From the sequence record MT939241.1: a stretch of DNA of 64,000 nucleotides, one strand, 5' to 3'. Origin of the DNA: Enterococcus phage 9183. The first letter of the stretch is position 1. Each line of letters begins with the position of its first letter. Below, in pieces: positions 7,074 to 42,705 of the stretch. Made by a program: the position numbers and the translations under genes. Under the pieces are notes generated by a model, which searched no databases, had not been told where the DNA came from, and saw only the letters and a program-made list of their open reading frames with translations.

Positions 7074-7258
7074 AAAATAAAAATGTTTACATTGTCGATG
7101 TAATGAATAAAGGATATAAATGGGAAAAATGGTGTGTCGTAACTTCTTATGGCACTGCCATTATGGTAAGAGATCATTTAAGGTCTCGTAACATTTATAA
7201 AGACGTTCGTATAGAAACTTTAGAGTTAGACAACACCCATTTAAAAATTAATGAATAA
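7070..7258 (+). CDS. Small hypothetical protein
   Basis: ORF coupled to the ligase stop. Confidence 0.4.
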   Translation: MKNKNVYIVDVMNKGYKWEKWCVVTSYGTAIMVRDHLRSRNIYKDVRIETLELDNTHLKINE

Positions 7259-7353
7259 CATAATATGTTTTTAACTCTCTTAAATGAGACCTTATGCAAC
7301 ATTCTTTGATGAAATAGAACAAAATATTCGTATAGAAAGAGAAGGTAAACTGT

Positions 7354-7545
7354 ATGAAAAATTTTAGTGCAGCCATGAAACGCGAATTTAATTATTTGAT
7401 GAAGAATAGCAAACTTAGTGATTGGGCAAATAATAATTTTACTCCTTGGCAAATTGAAAAATTATATGAGGCTCGTGAAGCAAAAATTGATGGAGAAAAG
7501 ACAGCAAGTGGAATGGAGGCTATTATTAAACATGGAAGAAAGTGA
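7354..7545 (+). CDS. Small hypothetical protein
   Basis: ORF with RBS gagaagg. Confidence 0.4.
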   Translation: MKNFSAAMKREFNYLMKNSKLSDWANNNFTPWQIEKLYEAREAKIDGEKTASGMEAIIKHGRK

Positions 7546-7747: not shown

Positions 7748-7919
7748 ATTTAAGATTTTTTATCCTAATAATGAATGGGTTGCTGTAATGGCGACAAATG
7801 ACGAAATTTTTGATGCTTTTCAGAAAAAGGATGCAGTAATGCAATTTAAGAACGCTTTAAACGAAAATGTCTTTGTTGACTTCAGTAAAGTTCTTTTTAT
7901 CATTAATACGACCCGATAA
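7728..7919 (+). CDS. Small hypothetical protein
   Basis: ORF with TTG start and RBS aaggaag. Confidence 0.35.
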   Translation: MEKDVSRFKIFYPNNEWVAVMATNDEIFDAFQKKDAVMQFKNALNENVFVDFSKVLFIINTTR

Positions 7920-7993
7920 GGCCTCTAAATGAATCCTATCTAAAAGTAAGATATTTACAACGAATAAAATTCAGATTTTATTCTATAAATAAT

Positions 7994-8035
7994 GCATAAT
8001 ATGTAGATGAATCTATTTACATATTATGCTTTTTA
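7994..8035 (+). terminator. Intrinsic terminator (12-bp stem gcataatatgta/tacatattatgc plus TTTTT) embedding the -35 of the next promoter
   Basis: perfect inverted repeat followed by a T-run. Confidence 0.65.
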
Positions 8036-8044
8036 ATTTATAAT
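8016..8044 (+). promoter_or_regulatory. Consensus-like promoter (TTTACA, 17 nt spacer, TATAAT)
   Basis: read directly. Confidence 0.55.
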
Positions 8045-8087
8045 AAACCATATAATCAAACAACTAATAAAGAAAGAGGTTTATAAC

Positions 8088-8294
8088 ATGACAACATTAC
8101 AATCAAACAACGAATATTTCTTTCCACCAATTAAAAATCCTTTTAATACGGAGGAGGAATTTAGAGAGGAGAAAAGAAAAACTCAAGAGATATTTGATTC
8201 TCTAGATATTGAAGATAGCCTTCAATCAATTCAAAGCGATTATTACGGAGAAAAACTTACGTGGTTAGAACAATTAGAATATGAATATATTTAA
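8088..8294 (+). CDS. Small acidic hypothetical protein
   Basis: ORF with RBS aagagg. Confidence 0.5.
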   Translation: MTTLQSNNEYFFPPIKNPFNTEEEFREEKRKTQEIFDSLDIEDSLQSIQSDYYGEKLTWLEQLEYEYI

Positions 8295-8301
8295 ATTAAA
8301 A

Positions 8302-8335
8302 AATATCTATTACGAAAGTGATAGATATTTTTTTA
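8302..8335 (+). terminator. Intrinsic terminator (aatatctat/atagatatt stem plus T-run)
   Basis: read directly. Confidence 0.6.
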
Positions 8336-8374
8336 CAAACTTCTTCATTTATTTCACAAAATATAGAATAAAAT

Positions 8375-27702: not shown

Positions 27703-27881
27703 AAAAATATATTGGAGGAAATTAAAATGAAAAAATATCAAACTAAAGAACAAGAAATGTTAAACAAGGTGAAAACTGTATCAAAATTGGAGAGTTTATC
27801 TCCAAAAGAAAAGGTTGCTATCATGAAATTTTATGAAAATAAACATTTAAACATGACAACCAATTTTTAATCGTTTTTATT

Positions 27882-27912
27882 AAGGTACTCAATTGAGTAC
27901 CTTATTTTTTTT
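27882..27912 (+). terminator. Intrinsic terminator (aaggtactcaattgagtacctt plus T9)
   Basis: read directly. Confidence 0.7.
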
Positions 27913-27944
27913 ACATAAATAAACGAAATAAAGCTCCTAATATG

Positions 27945-27973
27945 TTTACAATGTCGACTTAGCTTGATATAAT
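27945..27973 (+). promoter_or_regulatory. Consensus phage promoter heading the nucleotide-modification operon
   Basis: TTTACA, 17-nt spacer, TGATATAAT. Confidence 0.65.
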
Positions 27974-28003: not shown

Positions 28004-28522
28004 ATGAGTATTAATATTGTTTTAGATGGTCCTAAAGCATGTGGAAAAAGCACAATTGCGAATATGATCATTAATGAATTAGGAAATTGGAAATATATTC
28101 ATTCGGATTCACAAACGAAAAATGATTTAGAATATCATTTAGATCTTTTAAATCAAGGTGAAAATACGGTATTAGATCGTTTTTCATTCGGTGAGGTAAT
28201 TTATTCGAAAGTATATGATCGTAAATGTAAACTTACGCCTAGTGAATTTTTGAAGACAGTGACTAGAGAAAATACGATTTACGTCGTTCTTTACTCAAGC
28301 TCAATGATTCTTTTAGAAGAAAGAATAGTAAGGCGTGGAAGAAAAACTGAAGACGAAGAATTAAGTCTCGTTTCGTCTAGCAACAGTTTATTCATTAGGT
28401 GTGCTACTTGGATGCAAGATCAACCTTACTCAGTAAGAAAAAGATACTTAACTTTTGACGTAGCAAAATACACCGCTGAAGAAATCTTTGAAAAGATAAA
28501 AGAAAAAATGGAGGAATTTTAA
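28004..28522 (+). CDS. dNMP kinase, thymidylate-kinase-like P-loop
   Basis: VLDGPKACGKST P-loop; VLDRF motif; ~170 aa. Confidence 0.6.
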   Translation: MSINIVLDGPKACGKSTIANMIINELGNWKYIHSDSQTKNDLEYHLDLLNQGENTVLDRFSFGEVIYSKVYDRKCKLTPSEFLKTVTRENTIYVVLYSSSMILLEERIVRRGRKTEDEELSLVSSSNSLFIRCATWMQDQPYSVRKRYLTFDVAKYTAEEIFEKIKEKMEEF

Positions 28523-29356
28523 ATGCAATCATTTGATAATTTAAATGCAGCTTGGGCATGGTTCGCAACAAAAGCTTTAACAGGAAAAAGAGTTGCGGGC
28601 ACAACCGAATTAAATAATGTATCTTTCACGCTTGAAAATATTAATGAAAATTTACTTACAATTCGTGAAAACTTTTCATTATCATATTATTTAGGAGAAG
28701 GAATTTGGTATGGAGCAGGCTCAAATTCTATGGAGTTCATTTCAAGATTTGGAAAAATTTGGGAAAAATTAAGTGATGATGGTGTTACAAATGAAAGTGC
28801 CTATGGATATATTCTAAAGAAAAAATATGGCTTTGATCAAATTGAAAAAATGGTTGAACTTTTAAGTAAAGATCCAAACAGTCGTCGCGCAGTGATGAAC
28901 ATTAATTTCGCTCGTAAAAATGTAATTGAAACGAATGATGAACAATGCACTATTGCTTTGCAGCTTTTGCTTCGTGATGGTGAGTTAAATATGACAGGAA
29001 TTATGCGTTCAAATGATTTATGGACGGGAACACCGTATGATATTTTCTACTTCACGGAAATTCAAAAATATATCGCTAATCGTTTAGGTGTTCAATATGG
29101 AACTTATACTCATTTCGTTACTTCATTGCATATTTATGATCGTGATAAAACGAAAGTAAGTAAATCGATTTTGAATTACTTAAATGATGAAAAAGTTGAT
29201 GTTACTATTGATGGTCAACTTTTATTAGAAAGCGCACCTGACTTATATAAGATAATAGGTAAGATTATAGATCCTAAAGAAGCCAAGAAAAAAGCAATTG
29301 AATTAGCAAAAATAAGAAATATCGTTGGAGGTAAAGACATTGAAAATCAAAATTAA
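28523..29356 (+). CDS. Thymidylate-synthase-fold pyrimidine hydroxymethylase / methylase homolog (dCMP- or dUMP-hydroxymethylase-like)
   Basis: RRAVMN; nucleophile block EQCTIALQLL; MRSND; SLHIYDRD; Asp in PYDIF where ThyA has Asn (PFNIA). Confidence 0.65.
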   Translation: MQSFDNLNAAWAWFATKALTGKRVAGTTELNNVSFTLENINENLLTIRENFSLSYYLGEGIWYGAGSNSMEFISRFGKIWEKLSDDGVTNESAYGYILKKKYGFDQIEKMVELLSKDPNSRRAVMNINFARKNVIETNDEQCTIALQLLLRDGELNMTGIMRSNDLWTGTPYDIFYFTEIQKYIANRLGVQYGTYTHFVTSLHIYDRDKTKVSKSILNYLNDEKVDVTIDGQLLLESAPDLYKIIGKIIDPKEAKKKAIELAKIRNIVGGKDIENQN

Positions 29357-29756
29357 AATGTTTGAGGATGATCCATTATTTAAACCAAAAAGAGCACATT
29401 ACAATGATGCAGGAGCTGATGTTCGATCAACTGTAGATGCTGTTATCTTACCAGGTCAAACTGTAAAAATTCCATTAGGATTTGGATTGGAATTACCCGA
29501 TGGTTACATGGGTGTAATGATGAGTCGATCAGGCCTCGCCTCTAAAGGTCTTGTTTCACAAAATGCTCCTGTTGACTCAGGTTATAAAGGTCAAGTACAC
29601 GCTATCTTGACAAATACGACAAATTTATCTATTACAATCGATCGCTTTACTCGTGTTGCACAATTAGTGATCGTTCCAATTATGGTGGCAGATTTCGTTG
29701 AAGAATTTGGAAATGAAAGAACTTCCGACGGTTTTGGAAGCACAGGTATTAAATAA
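29334..29756 (+). CDS. dut: dUTPase-family protein (canonical length)
   Basis: motifs AGADV, RSGLASKG, VDSGYKGQV, SDGFGSTG. Confidence 0.75.
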   Translation, partial: KTLKIKIKMFEDDPLFKPKRAHYNDAGADVRSTVDAVILPGQTVKIPLGFGLELPDGYMGVMMSRSGLASKGLVSQNAPVDSGYKGQVHAILTNTTNLSITIDRFTRVAQLVIVPIMVADFVEEFGNERTSDGFGSTGIK

Positions 29757-30100
29757 TGATACTTGTCTTTGATTTAGATGGAACGATTTGTGAGGAGAAA
29801 CCGAAAGGTACTCCTTACGCCGCTTATGCGGACGTTCAACCAAAAAGAAAAATGATTGAAAAGATTAAAGAATATCATGATGCAGGTCATAAAATCATTA
29901 TTTATACTGCTCGTCATATGGTTTCTACCAATGGTGATTTAAAAATGATTGAGGAACGTGTTGGTAAAATCACTCGCAATTGGTTAGAAAAAAATAATGT
30001 TCCTTATGATGAATTAATTTTTGGTAAACCATATGGGGATATGTACATTGATGATAAAGCAATGCAGCTTGATCAATTCTTATTGGAGGAAATGCTATGA
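29756..30100 (+). CDS. Small HAD-superfamily phosphatase
   Basis: DLDGT motif I; T/S motif II; GKPYGDMYIDDKA motifs III/IV. Confidence 0.6.
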   Translation: MILVFDLDGTICEEKPKGTPYAAYADVQPKRKMIEKIKEYHDAGHKIIIYTARHMVSTNGDLKMIEERVGKITRNWLEKNNVPYDELIFGKPYGDMYIDDKAMQLDQFLLEEML

Positions 30101-31731
30101 TTAATAATATCGCTCTTATTCCTGCAGCAGGTAGAGGAACGCGGATGAAATCAGTCACGGATAAATATCCAAAGGCAATGATTCCACATTTAGGAAAACC
30201 AATTATAGGCCACCAAATTGAATATTTGATAAAAGAAGGCTTTGATAAGGTAGTTATCGTTGTAGGTTATCAGAAAGACATTCTAATGCAATACGTGATT
30301 AAAAATTATGCGGATAAAATTCGTATTTTATTCGCAAATCAAGACGAATTAGATGGACTTGCGACAGCGATTCTTGAAGGAATCAACGCCTTAAACGAAA
30401 AAGACTTATTATTATCAAATCTCACAATTATTCTAGGAGACATTTTACCTCAAGAAGAAATGCCTTATTTTAATGGAGAAAGTTTCATTTGCTATAAAGA
30501 GGTTGATGACTGGCAACGTTGGTGCATGGTTAAAGAACTTTATTCAGGTCGTTTATGTTTTTATGATAAACCAATTGATAAGCCAAACACCAATAAAGCT
30601 TTAATGGGAATTTACATGTTTAATGATATCGATCTATTAAAAGAAAGCATCGAACATATCAAAGAAAAAAATATTCGAATCAATGGGGAATTTCAATTAA
30701 GCTCTGCAATGAATATCTATAATGAACATGTTAACATTAATTTGAAAAAATATGAAAAATTCATTGACTTCGGTCAAGCTGAAGACATTAGTGCCGCAAG
30801 AAAAAATGCTGCTCGTTACTTCAATGATATTTTAATTGAAGATGAGGTAGTAACAAAAAGAAGCACTGATAAAAGTAAAATGTACGACGAATCAATGTGG
30901 TACCAATTAGCCAAAAATTACTTAGGTGATTATTTACCTGAATGTTATGGCATGACAAAAGAAAATGATGGATATAAAATGAGTCGCATTAAGCTGCCTT
31001 CTCTCCAAGAACAATTCGTCTTTGGAACATTAAGTAGAGTAGAAGCTTACCAATTGATGATTGACTTAATGAATTATTTCAAAGACACGAAAAAATACGG
31101 GACTAAGCGCCCAAATTTGATTAAAGCAAATCAAGATATGTTTATTAATAAGACAAGAGAACGTATTGAAAAAATCAAAAATATGTTCGATGAAAAATAT
31201 TATGTAATTAATGGAGAAATTAAAGAAAATCCAATTTTTATATTTGAAGAAAAAATCGTTCCTCGTTTAGAGGAAATTATTGCCGATGATAATTATGCCG
31301 CAATGATTCACGGTGATTTATTCTTTGGAAATATGATGTACGATCCAAAAGGAGAAGATGGGCAACGTTTGAAAATCATTGATCCTCGTGGCAAATATGG
31401 AGAAGATAATCGTCTTATGGGTGATATGCGATATGATTATGCTAAATTAAATCATTCAATTTCAGGATATTATGATTTCATTATTAATGGGCTTTATTAT
31501 TTGGAAGATAATGGAACTGTGATCAATTATAACTTTTACGATAGTGAAAAGCAGGTAGAAGTACAAGGTTTATTTGAAGATTTACTTTCATTGTCTCATA
31601 TGAAAAAGAAAGATATTGATATGATCACGGGTATCTTGTTCCTATCGATGATTCCGCTTCACAAAGAGAATAAAAATAATCAAATCATTCAATTTGCACA
31701 AGCAATTAAATTTTTAGAATTAGGAGCATGA
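30097..31731 (+). CDS. Bifunctional sugar-phosphate nucleotidyltransferase (N-terminal) / APH-ChoK-fold small-molecule kinase (C-terminal)
   Basis: N-terminus LIPAAGRGTRMKS...GKP (GlmU/RmlA/LicC-type NTase); C-terminus IHGDLFFGNMMYD...IIDPRG (HGDxxxxN catalytic loop plus D-x-R/G). Confidence 0.6.
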   Translation: MINNIALIPAAGRGTRMKSVTDKYPKAMIPHLGKPIIGHQIEYLIKEGFDKVVIVVGYQKDILMQYVIKNYADKIRILFANQDELDGLATAILEGINALNEKDLLLSNLTIILGDILPQEEMPYFNGESFICYKEVDDWQRWCMVKELYSGRLCFYDKPIDKPNTNKALMGIYMFNDIDLLKESIEHIKEKNIRINGEFQLSSAMNIYNEHVNINLKKYEKFIDFGQAEDISAARKNAARYFNDILIEDEVVTKRSTDKSKMYDESMWYQLAKNYLGDYLPECYGMTKENDGYKMSRIKLPSLQEQFVFGTLSRVEAYQLMIDLMNYFKDTKKYGTKRPNLIKANQDMFINKTRERIEKIKNMFDEKYYVINGEIKENPIFIFEEKIVPRLEEIIADDNYAAMIHGDLFFGNMMYDPKGEDGQRLKIIDPRGKYGEDNRLMGDMRYDYAKLNHSISGYYDFIINGLYYLEDNGTVINYNFYDSEKQVEVQGLFEDLLSLSHMKKKDIDMITGILFLSMIPLHKENKNNQIIQFAQAIKFLELGA

Positions 31732-31735
31732 TAAA

Positions 31736-32956
31736 ATGGGTAAAACAATCGTTTTTGGAAAATTAGGAAGAACTATACGATTCAACCGCAAGAATTGGAA
31801 ATCAGGTGCTGGCAATAATGAGCCGGCAACATTGCTTTCAGCTTTAGCTAATGCAAATCCTCAAAATAAATATATTATCATTGGTAGAAGTGATTTCTCT
31901 CGTTGTGATGAAGAAACGATAAACTATTGGTTTAAATATGATAATGTTGAAGATGCTTGGGCAGACTATGACAAGAAAAAACATGATCTTTATAATTTCC
32001 TTTATGAAAAATATAAAGATACTCATATTGATTATGGGATTATCAATGGAGGTATCACAGGTAACACAAACTCTCCAGGCTGCTTTATTAAATATGATAA
32101 AGATGGAAATTCAACTGGAGAAAAATTACGTGTGTTAGATGCTATGGCTATTTACGTTGGCCCAATCATTTGCTTATTTAACAAACGAAAAATAAAATGG
32201 GTAAACTTCCATGCAGATGCTCGTCAGTTTCCTATTAAAGGTAAAGATGTTTTCCAACAGCCTGAACTTACAATTGGGACAAGAAATATTGATCGAGTGA
32301 AAATGACATATAAAGATTATGATGATCAAACTGATATTCCTAGAGAAATGAGTATGAGATATGGAATGACTGAAGCTCTCCTTTTACTTGACCCTGAATA
32401 TAAAGATTTTCCTAAAGTTGAAAAAGATATTAAAGTAGGATTCTTCTTCCATAATTATGAAAAAATCAAAAATCGTACTCATGAATTACTTAATTATATT
32501 GATCAGTTTGGAGAAGATGAAATTTCAGTTTATGGCAAATGGAAAGGTTTTGAGGATCAACCTAAATTTAAAGGTGAATGTACCTTTGATGAGATGCAAG
32601 AAATTTTACCTCGGATCAAATATACACTTTGCTATCCTATCGTTAAAGGTGATATTAGTGCAAAATGGATTGAAGCTGTAAGAGCTGGTATTATTCCTTT
32701 CTTCGATGAAAAATATGATGAAAATCGTTTGCTCGTTGATATTCACAACGTTCCTTCATTCTTATATGTATCTTCACCTGAAGATATGAAAGAAAAAATT
32801 AACCTGCTTGAAAAAGATCCTCACATTTACAAATCTATTCTTGATTTATTGACTGATCGTTTAGAATATCTTAAAGAAAATGTTCTTTCAATTTATGAAT
32901 GTGAAATTGAGGATGCCATTGAAGGCGGCGTTGAAAGATACGATAAAATTTATTAA
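31736..32956 (+). CDS. Putative GT-B glycosyltransferase, T4 beta-glucosyltransferase-like C-terminal motif
   Basis: KWIEAVRAGIIPFFDEKYD resembles the GT-B EAxAxGxP(V/I) motif and the T4 BGT block RVWETMASDAVMLIDEEFD (recalled from memory); ~400 aa. Confidence 0.4.
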   Translation: MGKTIVFGKLGRTIRFNRKNWKSGAGNNEPATLLSALANANPQNKYIIIGRSDFSRCDEETINYWFKYDNVEDAWADYDKKKHDLYNFLYEKYKDTHIDYGIINGGITGNTNSPGCFIKYDKDGNSTGEKLRVLDAMAIYVGPIICLFNKRKIKWVNFHADARQFPIKGKDVFQQPELTIGTRNIDRVKMTYKDYDDQTDIPREMSMRYGMTEALLLLDPEYKDFPKVEKDIKVGFFFHNYEKIKNRTHELLNYIDQFGEDEISVYGKWKGFEDQPKFKGECTFDEMQEILPRIKYTLCYPIVKGDISAKWIEAVRAGIIPFFDEKYDENRLLVDIHNVPSFLYVSSPEDMKEKINLLEKDPHIYKSILDLLTDRLEYLKENVLSIYECEIEDAIEGGVERYDKIY

Positions 32957-32966
32957 AAATAAAAAT

Positions 32967-32997
32967 CACGGGCGAATAAGTTTACTATTTGCCCGTG
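32967..32997 (+). other. 7-bp-stem hairpin (cacgggc/gcccgtg) with the next promoter's -35 (TTTACT) in its 17-nt loop; no T-run
   Basis: read directly. Confidence 0.5.
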
Positions 32998-33009
32998 TAA
33001 TGATATAAT
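32981..33009 (+). promoter_or_regulatory. Promoter variant (TTTACT, 17 nt spacer, TGATATAAT)
   Basis: read directly. Confidence 0.55.
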
Positions 33010-33042
33010 ATAAAAGTAAAAATTATAAAGGATGGTATTTAT

Positions 33043-33567
33043 ATGAGTACGACTTTTAAAGTTAAAAAACACGAAGATAATATCATTCACCTTTATTCTG
33101 ATGGAGGCTGTCGTTCAACGGCAAAGAAAGGTGAAAAAATTAAAGACACCGATAAATGTGCTTACGCTTTCTTCTTAAAACAAGGAGGACACGAAAAACT
33201 TGATGGATTTGCTTCTTATGGAAAGACAAATAATAATCAAGAAATAATGGGATTGCTCATGGGGCTAAGAGCAATTAAACGTCCTGAGTTTCCAGTTATT
33301 GCTTATCTTGATAGCGCTTACGTTGTTAACTGTCTTCAAGCAGGTTGGTGGCGTAAGTGGGAGCAAAATGGGTGGACGAAGAAAGGTGGCCTTGCAAATG
33401 CTGAAGAATGGAAAGCATTAATTAAAGAACTTAAAAGATTTCCATTTTTCTCCATTGAAAAGGTGAAAGGTCATTCAGGTAATGCTGATTATAATGATCT
33501 AGTCGACAAGCATTTAAACAAATTAATGGATGAACTTGAGGAGAAAGGTAAAGGTAATGTATTATGA
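33043..33567 (+). CDS. rnhA: Ribonuclease H
   Basis: RNase HI fold motifs LYSDGG, NQEIMG, YLDSAYV. Confidence 0.65.
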   Translation: MSTTFKVKKHEDNIIHLYSDGGCRSTAKKGEKIKDTDKCAYAFFLKQGGHEKLDGFASYGKTNNNQEIMGLLMGLRAIKRPEFPVIAYLDSAYVVNCLQAGWWRKWEQNGWTKKGGLANAEEWKALIKELKRFPFFSIEKVKGHSGNADYNDLVDKHLNKLMDELEEKGKGNVL

Positions 33568-34535
33568 TTTATTTTGGTAAAACTCGTATTAACCTATTTT
33601 CATATGACGCGTCAGCAAAGCCAAGATTAGATACTGAAGAAATATTAAAAGGAATGGGTTTCACACCTTTAATTGTGTCAGCTTTTGAAGAGGTAAAAGA
33701 TGTAAAATTACGCGTCGAACAAGAACTGGCAAACATAAAAGAAAATGATATCATAATCGTTCAATATCCTTCTTTTAGTTGGAGAGAATACGAAATAGCT
33801 TTTAATGAACAAGCACATAAACAAGGAGCTAAAGTGTTTGCTATCGTTCACGATCTGGAGACATTAAGATGGCCTGGTGATACGTCAGACTTTGAAGTAT
33901 TAAATACTTTTGATGCTATTTCATTGCCTTCATATAAAGCTGCAAGCTTTTTAATGAAGAAAGGTTTGAAAACGCCTTTTTACTTCCAGTTCTTTTGGGA
34001 TTATTTATGTGAAAACAATGGGCAAATGTTAGACTTGAATGCCGATATTGTGTATGCAGGAAATATCATTGAACGTAAAACAGAATTTCTTAATGATGTA
34101 AAATTTCCAATACGCCTTTATGGTGATAATATCGAAAATAGAACATTTAGGGAAAATATCACATATGAAGGTAGACGAACGAATGAGGAATTAGTTTTGG
34201 AAATAGGAGGAAATATTGGCTTATCATGGGATAGTAATAATTATTTAGAATATGCAAAATATAATCTTTCATATAAGCCTGCTATGTATTTAGCCGCAAA
34301 CTGTCCTATTATCGTTCATAATAAAACGAACATAGCAAGAATAGTTGAAGCTTATAATTTAGGTAAAGTTATAGGTGATTTAAAATATGATACAGTTTTA
34401 AAAGCTGTCGTTGATATTAAGAAAGAACGTGAAAGATATGCAGAAGCAACTCTTGCATTTGGACAAAATTTAAGAGATGGAAGATGTTTGAAAAATTTAA
34501 TAGAAAGGATGTTGACTTCACAAGATGCATATTGA
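33564..34535 (+). CDS. Hypothetical protein, possible second GT-B-like glycosyltransferase
   Basis: weak GT-B-like C-terminal block YLAANCPIIVHN...EAYNLGKVI; ~320 aa. Confidence 0.3.
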   Translation: MIYFGKTRINLFSYDASAKPRLDTEEILKGMGFTPLIVSAFEEVKDVKLRVEQELANIKENDIIIVQYPSFSWREYEIAFNEQAHKQGAKVFAIVHDLETLRWPGDTSDFEVLNTFDAISLPSYKAASFLMKKGLKTPFYFQFFWDYLCENNGQMLDLNADIVYAGNIIERKTEFLNDVKFPIRLYGDNIENRTFRENITYEGRRTNEELVLEIGGNIGLSWDSNNYLEYAKYNLSYKPAMYLAANCPIIVHNKTNIARIVEAYNLGKVIGDLKYDTVLKAVVDIKKERERYAEATLAFGQNLRDGRCLKNLIERMLTSQDAY

Positions 34536-34779
34536 AATGTATATTTTTGATCAATGTTTCGTCGATCATGCAAATTATTTAGAGACAAGAGTTGGAGAAG
34601 GTTATAAGGTTTATCAATTCCAACAGTCAGGTGGAAATCCTCCATTTAGTCCTATTTATTCTATTAAATTTAGAAAGTTGCTTAAATATAAATGGTACAA
34701 TAATTTTCATGGTTGGTTATTTAAATATAGGAGAAAACGTTTTGTTGAAAAAGAATTAGGGAGGAAATACGTTGGCTAA
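34525..34779 (+). CDS. Small hypothetical protein
   Basis: ORF fills the gap, coupled to its neighbours. Confidence 0.4.
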   Translation: MHIEMYIFDQCFVDHANYLETRVGEGYKVYQFQQSGGNPPFSPIYSIKFRKLLKYKWYNNFHGWLFKYRRKRFVEKELGRKYVG

Positions 34780-35380
34780 ATTAATCTTCTTTTATGGGGC
34801 AATGAAAAGTGGTAAAAGCATGGAAATTGCTAAGACATATACGAACTACAAAATTAAAGGACAAGATCCAATGGTTTTTAAACCTTCGATCGACACTCGT
34901 GATAAAAACATTAAGTCAAGATTAGGTATTGAAATTCCTTGTGAAGTTATAAAACCTGATGAAGATTTAAATAGGAAAATTTTTATTGATCGATTTTCAC
35001 AAAAATTGCCTCCTGTCGTTTTAATTGACGAGGCGCAATTTTTAAGTGACAAACAGGTTCGTGAATTGGGAGTAATTGTTGATGTAGGCAATATTGACAT
35101 AATTTGCTTTGGTTTAAAAAATGATTTTAAAGGCAAACTATTTGAAGGATCAAAGGCATTAATTGAGGAAGCTGATAAGTTAGTTGAAGTTAAGACATTA
35201 TGTGCTTTTTGTAACCGTAAAGCAACTCATAATCTTTTAACTGAAATTCATGATGATGGAAAAAGATATGCAGTTGACACTTCAGTTGAAGGAAACTTAA
35301 GGATCGGCGACGAAGATTTCTTTCAGTGTTGCCGAAAACATTATTATCAATATTCAACACGCACGCGTGAAATTAAATAG
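34772..35380 (+). CDS. tdk: Thymidine kinase
   Basis: FFYGAMKSGKS P-loop; VLIDEAQF; C-terminal zinc ribbon CAFCN...CCRKH. Confidence 0.8.
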   Translation: MAKLIFFYGAMKSGKSMEIAKTYTNYKIKGQDPMVFKPSIDTRDKNIKSRLGIEIPCEVIKPDEDLNRKIFIDRFSQKLPPVVLIDEAQFLSDKQVRELGVIVDVGNIDIICFGLKNDFKGKLFEGSKALIEEADKLVEVKTLCAFCNRKATHNLLTEIHDDGKRYAVDTSVEGNLRIGDEDFFQCCRKHYYQYSTRTREIK

Positions 35381-35391
35381 GATTTTTAATG

Positions 35392-35420
35392 AAGGTTCGT
35401 TTACATAGCGAACCTTTTTT
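35392..35420 (+). terminator. Intrinsic terminator (aaggttcg/cgaacctt plus T6) whose 9-nt loop is the -35 TTTACA of the next promoter
   Basis: read directly. Confidence 0.7.
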
Positions 35421-35428
35421 GATATAAT
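35400..35428 (+). promoter_or_regulatory. Consensus phage promoter
   Basis: TTTACA, 17-nt spacer, TGATATAAT. Confidence 0.65.
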
Positions 35429-41743: not shown

Positions 41744-41962
41744 ATGAATTTTAGTCAAGCTTTTGATACCGTCAGTCAACGAGAAGGAACGTTTATGCGT
41801 TTGCCTCAATGGAAAGAGGACGTAAAAATTCGTGCTCAATTTCCTGATGAATACAGTAAAATGAGTCATCCTTACCTATATGTGGAATCGCGTTTTGGTA
41901 ATGTACCTTGGATTCCAACACAGGTTGAAATGTTTTCAAATAAATGGGAGGTAGGAATTTAA
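41744..41962 (+). CDS. Small hypothetical protein
   Basis: ORF with RBS aggaga. Confidence 0.45.
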   Translation: MNFSQAFDTVSQREGTFMRLPQWKEDVKIRAQFPDEYSKMSHPYLYVESRFGNVPWIPTQVEMFSNKWEVGI

Positions 41963-42705
41963 TGAGAAAATTTGAAGTAGTAAGTGCCTATAAGGACAAA
42001 GAAATTAATTTGCCAATGCGAGCAACTCCTCATTCAGCAGGTTATGATTTTGAGGCTGCAGAAGATATTGAAATCCCTTCATTCTTCGTGGGTGTTCGTC
42101 AGTTGATGACATATATTGAGGATAGAATCGATCAATCAAATAATCATCCAATGGATGAACGAACATACGAAAGGTTGATGAGATATGAAGAAGAAACTGA
42201 TGAAATATCTAGACACCTATCTGAATATGAACAGCTTCCTGTTGCATATGTTAAAGAGCTTTTATCGTTAATCGATGATATTCTCGACGATGATGAAACT
42301 TCATGCTTAGAAGCTGTTGAAGATTTCCGTAAAAAATTAAAACCTACGTTAGTTCCTACAGGAATTAAAGCTTGCATGCATAAAGATGAATTTTTAGGAT
42401 TATACAATCGTTCTTCAAATCCATTAAAACGAATGCTCGTATTGGCAAATGGCGTTGGAGTTATTGATAGTGACTATTACGATAATGAAGACAACGAAGG
42501 CCATATCATGTTCCAATTTATTAATCTAGGATTCCTTCCTGTAAAGATTAAGAAAGGCGAACGAATTGGGCAAGGTATCTTCCAAAAATTCTTAACAGTT
42601 GAGACAGTTGAAGAAACGCGTGAAGATACAAGAAGCGGTGGTTTTGGTTCAACAGGTGTTGACGACACTATTCCTGGAGAAATGTTTGAAAAAGAGGTGC
42701 TTTAA
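41962..42705 (+). CDS. dUTPase / dCTP-deaminase-family paralog with a ~130-aa insertion between motifs 2 and 3
   Basis: motifs SAGYDF, GVIDSDYYD, RSGGFGSTG; large insert ~70..200. Confidence 0.6.
   Translation: MRKFEVVSAYKDKEINLPMRATPHSAGYDFEAAEDIEIPSFFVGVRQLMTYIEDRIDQSNNHPMDERTYERLMRYEEETDEISRHLSEYEQLPVAYVKELLSLIDDILDDDETSCLEAVEDFRKKLKPTLVPTGIKACMHKDEFLGLYNRSSNPLKRMLVLANGVGVIDSDYYDNEDNEGHIMFQFINLGFLPVKIKKGERIGQGIFQKFLTVETVEETREDTRSGGFGSTGVDDTIPGEMFEKEVL

Follow-up and report, generated by a model that had tools for sequence, protein, structure and literature searches.

Enterococcus phage 9183 carries a gene for a ThyA-fold protein, and the question is whether this protein makes thymidylate or a modified cytosine nucleotide. 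We analyzed a stretch of 64,000 nucleotides (nt) of the phage genome (sequence record MT939241.1; hereafter the window), in which positions 28,523 to 29,356 encode the 277-residue protein. Public databases label the protein and its homologs 'thymidylate synthase' or 'hypothetical protein'. By contrast, an initial annotation, made from the letters of the DNA without database searches, had pointed to 5-hydroxymethyl-dC rather than thymidylate synthesis. The analysis described here supports that reading at the sequence level, since the active site matches that of the T4 dCMP hydroxymethylase and the gene context agrees. The gene product is very probably a folate-dependent deoxycytidylate (dCMP) 5-hydroxymethyltransferase, i.e. 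a dCMP hydroxymethylase or 5-hydroxymethyl-dCMP (5hm-dCMP) synthase.

Active site of the ThyA-fold protein

Membership of the protein in the ThyA superfamily is not due to chance resemblance. It matches the Pfam family PF00303 with E=2e-23 (83 bits; cut-off 24.3), and its AlphaFold2 model, based on 56 homologs, has a mean predicted local distance difference test score (pLDDT) of 94.5. A fold search with this model returned the CMP hydroxymethylase MilA first, the dCMP hydroxymethylase of phage T4 (gp42) second and thymidylate synthases (TSs) after them, and all top matches in the PDB are TS-family proteins. The ThyA landmarks quoted in the initial annotation (RRAVMN, the nucleophilic Cys, MRSND and HIYDRD) are all present where it had placed them. 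Alignment with E. coli ThyA likewise bore out the two departures that it had singled out: the nucleophile reads Q-C-T against P-C-H in ThyA, and the specificity site reads PYDIF against PFNIA, with Asp173 aligned to E. coli Asn177. The likeness to T4 gp42 that it had noted was also borne out: gp42 reads M-C-T, MRSND and RNDYA in the alignment.

To assign the protein within the superfamily, we aligned it with E. coli ThyA, T4 gp42, the dUMP hydroxymethylase gp29 of SPO1, gp48 of RB69, homologs from KARL-1, PTm1 and AF3 that represent the 5-hydroxy-dCMP synthase clade, and the MilA segment from the PDB search. Residue signatures and pairwise scores were preferred over formal phylogeny, the branches being long. 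In E. coli numbering, the phage protein has E58, W80, Y94, R126, R127, D143, C146, T147, R166, S167, N168, D169, G173, D177, H207 and Y209, and of 20 active-site positions compared with T4 gp42, 17 are the same. In its own numbering, C142, R121/R122, R162, E59, Y94, H203 and Y205 align with the catalytic and binding residues of TS, namely, the Cys nucleophile, the phosphate-binding Arg pair and Arg166, the general-base Glu58/Tyr94 and the sugar-binding His207/Tyr209, and these residues are invariant in all 120 homologs compared.

The positions that set canonical TS apart are changed. Asp173 stands in place of the uracil-specificity residue Asn177, and the solvent-excluding pair L143/W83 and His147 are replaced by D139, L83 and T143, respectively. 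Consistent with these substitutions, none of the NCBIfam TS models reaches its cut-off, the best scores being 87, 69 and 49 against 174.6, 327 and 108. At position 177, Asn selects deoxyuridylate (dUMP) and Asp selects dCMP, the latter role being established for T4 Asp179 (PMC6400193, PMC13326640). Asp occupies this position in every alignment made, and in the comparison with T4 gp42, which had been proposed as a check, Asp173 aligns with T4 Asp179. Leu143 of ThyA keeps water away from the methylene intermediate, and hydroxymethylases have Asp or Glu there (PMC13326640). In T4 gp42 the added water is held by Asp145, Ser94 (two residues before the catalytic Tyr) and Tyr96, and mutation of any one of them abolishes activity (PMC6400193). 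The counterparts in the phage protein, D139, S92 and Y94, show no variation within its clade. The folate-contacting Asp169 (T4 Asp171) and Glu58 are kept as D165 and E59 in 120 of 120 homologs, and the deoxyribose-type pair Ser167 and Arg126' is represented by S163 and R121. The combined signature, D143-C146-S167-D169-D177, is carried by all 120 close homologs. Among the 150 best representatives of clusters at 50% identity it occurs in 143; the seven deviating representatives have Asn177 (five), Ala167 (one) or Asn143 (one), and none has Asn169. At these diagnostic positions the protein differs from TS, dUMP hydroxymethylases, CMP hydroxymethylases and 5-hydroxy-dCMP synthases and agrees throughout with dCMP hydroxymethylases.

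By analogy with T4 gp42, Cys142 would attack C6 of dCMP, whose cytosine N3/N4 edge would be recognized and protonated by Asp173. The methylene of 5,10-methylenetetrahydrofolate would then be moved to C5, with Glu59 and Asp165 positioning and activating the folate. Without hydride transfer, a water held by Ser92, Tyr94 and Asp139 would hydrate the exocyclic methylene, yielding 5-hydroxymethyl-dCMP and tetrahydrofolate (THF). No dihydrofolate reductase (DHFR) is annotated in the near-identical genome of Enterococcus phage Planchet, which fits a reaction releasing THF rather than dihydrofolate (DHF).

Relatives with modified cytosine and alternative chemistries

The window has ~94% DNA identity to Planchet, which belongs to the genus Denvervirus, subfamily Andrewesvirinae, and is a siphophage infecting vancomycin-resistant E. 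faecium. Enterococcus phage TJE4 encodes the same protein (100% identity) under the label 'hypothetical protein', and PLANC_65 of Planchet, which carries the annotation 'Thymidilate synthase/pyrimidine hydroxymethylase', is 97% identical to it. Identity of the protein is 65% to the homolog on contig L012, 57% to that of Lactobacillus phage ATCCB and 55–56% to the 'thymidylate synthase' of the E. faecalis phages VPE25, VFW, nattely and vipetofem. In VPE25, L012 and ATCCB, a T4-type beta-glucosyltransferase (PF09198 in L012) is encoded within a few genes after the TS homolog, the intervening gene being a dUTPase gene and, in L012, also a nuclease-like open reading frame (ORF). The VPE25 beta-glucosyltransferase is 42% identical to that of T4. 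The DNA of VPE25 and VFW is bisulfite-resistant at C, resistant to MspI and cut by PvuRts1I (Duerkop et al. 2016, PMC4999554), as expected of glycosylated 5-hydroxymethylcytosine (5hmC). The same study assumed a route from 5-methylcytosine (5mC) to 5hmC and named no enzyme for 5hmC formation (PMC4999554); the VPE25/VFW ortholog of the protein described here is the obvious candidate.

Two relatives display further variation around the ThyA homolog. In an 81%-identical relative (contig L010), the homolog is shortened to 267 residues, and a 187-residue ORF without a Pfam match (7791-8354) lies between it and the dUTPase gene. In ATCCB (5989-9044 of contig L018), genes for a beta-glucosyltransferase and a UDP-galactopyranose mutase come after that for the ThyA homolog, an arrangement that could point to a 5hmC modification with galactofuranose in this Lactobacillus phage.

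The strongest rival to dCMP hydroxymethylation is a flavin/O2-dependent 5-hydroxy-dCMP synthase of the RB69 gp48/DLP3 gp80/HY126 type, which would give DNA with glycosylated 5-hydroxycytosine (5hoC) carrying an ether-linked sugar; we consider it improbable. This activity has been described for RB69 gp48, DLP3 gp80 and diverse ThyA homologs, with D169N as the diagnostic substitution, Asp177 and the C-T nucleophile being shared with hydroxymethylases (Lee et al. NAR 2026, PMC13326640). Besides these shared residues, the hydroxylases have MilA as their best structural match too. Moreover, two neighbors of the 9183 gene are homologous to AfhF and AfhE, and the AfhE-like fusion is otherwise found, within the phage collection, almost only in Straboviridae with an arabinosylation cluster. 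The diagnostic substitution, however, is absent, as the phage protein has Asp165 where RB69, KARL-1, PTm1 and AF3 have Asn. In the alignment, these four proteins all carry Asn169, Val173 and Glu143 and lack Trp80 (the clade has A or K at position 80), whereas the proteins of 9183, VPE25 and L012 share Asp169, Gly173, Asp143 and Trp80 with T4 gp42. Furthermore, E58 is invariant in the clade of the phage protein and lost in PTm1 and AF3. By sequence, the protein scores 102 bits against MilA, 50 against the best ThyA, 47 against the HY126/RB69-type hydroxylase (9iqc/9iqu, ~99% identical to RB69 gp48) and 34 against T4 gp42, and the hydroxylase structure is outside the top 50 fold matches. Finally, the close relatives with the same signature adjoin T4-type beta-glucosyltransferases, which act on 5hmC.

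Even less probable is that the protein acts as a dCMP methyltransferase, like the 5-methyl-dCMP synthase ascribed to Xanthomonas phage XP12; methylene transfer and reduction would then lead to 5mC in DNA. Asp177 would give dCMP specificity either way, and the bisulfite resistance of the relatives is also expected with 5mC. Yet Asp takes the place of a bulky hydrophobic residue at position 143 and the Ser92/Tyr94/Asp139 water network of the T4 enzyme is intact, while W83 is replaced and a helical extension takes the place of the C-terminal closing segment of ThyA. Nor is a DHFR annotated in Planchet to recycle DHF, and 5mC would offer no hydroxyl to the two or three co-encoded glycosyltransferases. 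In addition, VPE25 DNA is MspI-resistant, though MspI cuts 5mC DNA (PMC4999554).

An enzyme directed at dUMP, be it an ordinary TS or a dUMP hydroxymethylase like SPO1 gp29, would agree with the 'thymidylate synthase' labels of public homologs, with an adjacent dUTPase that supplies dUMP and with the Asn177 of 5 of the 150 cluster representatives. We regard it as very unlikely, given Asp177 in the protein and in 120 of 120 close homologs, scores far under every TS equivalog cut-off, the replacement of L143, H147 and W83 alike, and cytosine as the modified base in relatives; dUMP hydroxymethylases combine an acidic residue at 143 with Asn177, and SPO1 gp29 indeed has Asn177. Least plausible of all is a MilA/BcmA-like CMP hydroxymethylase feeding a nucleoside metabolite instead of DNA: MilA is the closest solved relative by sequence and fold, but its Lys133' and Ala176 correspond to Arg121 and Ser163, the deoxyribose state of TS and T4 gp42 (PMC5175136), and the gene lies within an apparent phage DNA-replication operon with DNA-type glycosyltransferases. 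Ser167 and Arg126' confer deoxyribose specificity, MilA, with Ala and Lys, prefers CMP, and its A176S/K133R mutant switches to dCMP (PMC5175136).

Several points weigh against the assignment as a dCMP hydroxymethylase. Overall identity to T4 gp42 is only ~25%, and the D169N rule by which the two chemistries are told apart is empirical and of recent date. AfhE/AfhF homologs, which adjoin the gene, are so far known only from cytosine-hydroxylating (5hoC) phages. The evidence from VPE25 is indirect, consisting of bisulfite and restriction assays without mass spectrometry, and a literature search on Denvervirus, Planchet, 9183 and TJE4 turned up no report of DNA modification. Furthermore, no clear dCTPase was identified, so that complete replacement of dC is not established.

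The apparent operon and its putative sugar module

The hydroxymethylase gene belongs to a block that runs from a nucleotide kinase gene to a thymidine kinase gene (Table 1). At both ends of this block, a terminator-like hairpin is followed by a strong promoter-like site (27881-27973 and 35391-35428), and 28004-35380 may constitute one transcription unit. The ATG of the hydroxymethylase gene comes immediately after the kinase stop codon, and a GGAGGA sequence precedes this ATG by 8 nt. An RNase H gene lies between the genes for the 406-residue and the Gtf3-like glycosyltransferases and is followed, after the latter, by the thymidine kinase gene; the Pol III alpha gene lies past the terminator-like hairpin.

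Table 1. Coordinates of the features discussed, in positions of the window (Ec, E. coli ThyA numbering; aa, amino acids)
Feature	Position	Strand	Description and basis
3' remnant of T4 beta-glucosyltransferase-like gene	7247..7364	+	junction ~7250-7254; 1077 bp deleted relative to Planchet
Terminator-like hairpin	27881-27904		upstream of promoter-like site; consensus scan only
Promoter-like site	27945..27973	+	TTTACA-17-TATAAT, TG-extended, 11/12 matches; consensus scan only
Tmk/YorR-like P-loop nucleotide kinase	28004..28522	+	172 aa; PHROG thymidylate kinase family E=1e-13; best PDB match YorR
Predicted ThyA-fold dCMP hydroxymethylase (5hm-dCMP synthase)	28523..29356	+	277 aa; profile match, alignments, AlphaFold2 model
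RRAVMN	28883-28900		residues 121-126
Asp139 codon	28937-28939		Ec L143
Q-C-T	28943-28951		residues 141-143
Cys142 codon	28946-28948		nucleophile
MRSND	29003-29017		residues 161-165
Asp165 codon	29015-29017		Ec D169
PYDIF	29033-29047		residues 171-175
Asp173 codon	29039-29041		Ec N177
HIYDRD	29129-29146		residues 203-208
Trimeric dUTPase-family enzyme	29340..29756	+	likely start TTG 29340 behind GGAGG; ORF open from 29325
HAD-family sugar-phosphate phosphatase, AfhF-like	29756..30100	+	DxDGT motif; TIGR01689 capsule biosynthesis phosphatase E=5e-21
Sugar-1-phosphate nucleotidyltransferase/APH-choline-kinase-like sugar kinase fusion, AfhE-like	30097..31731	+	544 aa; Pfam NTP_transferase E=6e-18 and kinase matches
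GT-B glycosyltransferase	31736..32956	+	406 aa; AlphaFold2 pLDDT 91.6; best fold match T4 beta-glucosyltransferase E=9e-10
Gtf3/beta-1,6-galactofuranosyltransferase-like GT-B	33564..34535	+	323 aa; 48% identity to VPE25 counterpart
Terminator-like hairpin	35391-35417		3' of thymidine kinase gene; consensus scan only
Second dUTPase-family gene	41944-42705		253 aa; N-terminal ~130 residues without assignment

The kinase is predicted to phosphorylate hm-dCMP. YorR, its best match, has likewise been reported as the first-ranking match of DLP3 gp78, and comparison of the window kinase with RB69 gp45 and DLP3 gp78 yielded P-loop-level similarity only. Within the clade of the hydroxymethylase, one protein is a natural kinase-TS fusion (P0044), to whose kinase domain the window kinase is 34% identical, and another is a TS-kinase fusion (P0182); both contain Tmk-like kinases and support the link between kinase and hydroxymethylase. 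A third clade member (P0124), in which a TET-associated glycosyltransferase domain is fused to the TS domain, supports a link to 5hmC glycosylation. We envisage that the translationally coupled Tmk-like kinase and host enzymes would raise 5hm-dCMP to the triphosphate, that the phage Pol III-type replicase would incorporate hm-dCTP into DNA, and that the GT-B glycosyltransferases encoded a few genes downstream would glycosylate the hydroxymethyl groups there.

A dUTPase homolog adjoins the TS homolog in all relatives examined. The one in the block scores 101.3, just under the equivalog cut-off of 103, and could supply dUMP/dCMP and clear competing dNTPs. No homolog of the MazG-type dCTPase gp56 of T4 is present in the window; as no MazG-type dCTPase was found, one of the two dUTPase paralogs of the phage may act on dCTP.

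The phosphatase and the nucleotidyltransferase/kinase fusion that follow are counterparts of HY126 AfhF and AfhE, which make UDP-arabinofuranose from arabinose-5-phosphate (He et al., Nat Chem Biol 2026). The phosphatase displays 35% identity to RB69 gp51 and DLP3 gp81, and the fusion is 26% identical to DLP3 gp82 over 471 residues (E=8e-21) and also matches RB69 gp52 and gp53. Their catalytic motifs are intact in the translations: DxDGT in the phosphatase, GxGTR in the N-terminal nucleotidyltransferase and HGDxxxxN in the C-terminal kinase of the fusion. In the phage collection, 224 records match the fusion. Planchet aside, nearly all of them are T4-like phages (Straboviridae) with an arabinosylation cluster, infecting E. 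coli, Acinetobacter, Shigella, Serratia and Proteus; the few further matches are to cyanophages, Chryseobacterium phages and partial Staphylococcus phages. A tblastn search with the arabinose-5-phosphate isomerase RB69 gp55 against the window and positions 1-45000 and 69000-86460 of Planchet gave no match, and the Planchet annotation, which covers the stretch between the searched segments, lists no such isomerase. The presence of an unaltered RB69/DLP3-type arabinose pathway is therefore not supported.

The family of the 406-residue glycosyltransferase is very small, with 23 members among 5.8 billion proteins. The fold matches of the enzyme also include the HY126 phage glycosyltransferase 9iqz, and it resembles the T4 beta-glucosyltransferase and other GT-B enzymes at the fold level only: a sequence search of the PDB returned noise, and no significant sequence match was found to RB69 gp46/47 or DLP3 gp76, gp77 and gp79. 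It is predicted to be a DNA glycosyltransferase that uses a phage-made nucleoside diphosphate sugar, and the Gtf3-like transferase is a candidate for the addition of a second sugar. In the window, Planchet and L010, the phosphatase, the fusion and the 406-residue glycosyltransferase occupy the position that the beta-glucosyltransferase has in VPE25. The phage probably makes its own sugar nucleotide, by means of the phosphatase and the fusion, and attaches this sugar, rather than glucose from host UDP-glucose, to 5hmC.

Elsewhere in the genome, the phage has lost one DNA glycosyltransferase candidate relative to Planchet, in which the gene is intact (PLANC_101, 388 residues, 29% identical to the T4 beta-glucosyltransferase). 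A sugar module similar to that of 9183 is also found on two metagenomic phage contigs of ~100 kb (L021 5211-9200 and L022 5163-9215), where the phosphatase, the AfhE-like protein, a 219-230-residue ORF and a homolog of the 406-residue glycosyltransferase travel together; a PRA-PH (MazG-like) gene lies nearby on L022. No PF00303 gene occurs within 8 kb of the trio on either contig, which is uninformative for the TS assignment and indicates that the sugar module is separable from the ThyA homolog. The 219-230-residue ORF was considered as a TS homolog and rejected, having only weak matches to HipA-like kinases.

We tentatively propose, as a possibility that we hold to be somewhat less than even, that this E. 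faecium phage and its genus Denvervirus combine T4-type dCMP hydroxymethylation, an AfhE/AfhF-like sugar-nucleotide pathway and a GT-B enzyme resembling the T4 beta-glucosyltransferase in an undescribed hypermodification, namely, 5hmC bearing a non-glucose sugar, for instance a pentose such as arabinofuranose or ribofuranose. Without an arabinose-5-phosphate isomerase, the sugar would have to derive from a host sugar phosphate. For RB69, arabinosyl-5hmC was the first structure to be assigned, wrongly. If the proposal is true, the loss of the beta-glucosyltransferase-like gene relative to Planchet would mean that the new sugar alone suffices.

Significance and comparison with known systems

Part of this picture is already known: dCMP hydroxymethylases are textbook enzymes, the Planchet protein is labeled a possible pyrimidine hydroxymethylase, and glycosylated cytosine has been reported for the VPE25 group. 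The contribution made here is the identification, by sequence and predicted structure, of a putative new MilA-like dCMP hydroxymethylase in a large, uncharacterized and mostly metagenomic clade of phages. What is less ordinary is that a hydroxymethylase-type enzyme stands beside an AfhE/AfhF-like sugar module without the isomerase, a combination that may indicate an undescribed hypermodified base. If the assignment is correct, phages that are therapeutic candidates against vancomycin-resistant E. faecium package hypermodified, cytosine-substituted DNA. This would affect their resistance to restriction and CRISPR systems, make them sensitive to type IV (GmrSD-like) restriction enzymes, complicate sequencing and cloning, and possibly change the sensing of phage DNA by innate immunity. 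It would also supply the enzyme missing from the 2016 account of VPE25 and VFW. Whether AfhE/AfhF-type sugar modules occur only in the 5-hydroxycytosine pathway is a question for which the cluster is a natural test case.

Among solved structures, the closest relative is the CMP 5-hydroxymethylase MilA of Streptomyces rimofaciens (PDB 5b6d, 5jnh), with 31% identity (phmmer E=3.5e-28; Foldseek E=2e-19, TM-score 0.73, root-mean-square deviation 1.9 Å). Both proteins have Asp at positions 143, 169 and 177, whereas Lys133' and Ala176, responsible for the ribose preference of MilA, are Arg and Ser in the phage protein, and MilA serves antibiotic biosynthesis, not DNA. T4 gp42 (EC 2.1.2.8; PDB 1b5d, 6a9a) has the same fold and shares the C-T and MRSND motifs, Asp177, Asp143 and the Ser/Tyr water pair, as well as the logic of a pathway in which a kinase precedes a DNA glycosyltransferase. 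In contrast to gp42, the phage protein has a shortened loop without an equivalent of Lys28/Arg21 and, at its C-terminus, ~60 additional residues that fold into three helices. The setting differs from T4 as well: the phage is a siphophage of a Gram-positive host, its kinase is Tmk/YorR-like rather than gp1-like, and gp56 has no counterpart in the window.

The enzymes of RB69 (gp48), DLP3 (gp80) and HY126 share the ThyA fold and Asp177, and the content of their clusters is similar, with a Tmk-like kinase, a TS homolog, an HAD phosphatase, a nucleotidyltransferase/kinase fusion and GT-B transferases. Unlike the 9183 protein, they have Asn169 and Val173, lack W80 and depend on flavin and O2; their clusters carry the arabinose-5-phosphate isomerase that is absent in 9183, and the sugar-module proteins are only 25-35% identical between the two systems. 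VPE25, VFW, nattely and vipetofem (Andrewesvirinae) display the same active-site signature and the same gene order, from the kinase, TS homolog and dUTPase genes to those for RNase H, the Gtf3-like transferase, thymidine kinase and Pol III. In that group a T4-type beta-glucosyltransferase gene directly follows the dUTPase gene, whereas 9183 has the HAD phosphatase, the AfhE-like fusion and a different GT-B glycosyltransferase in its place.

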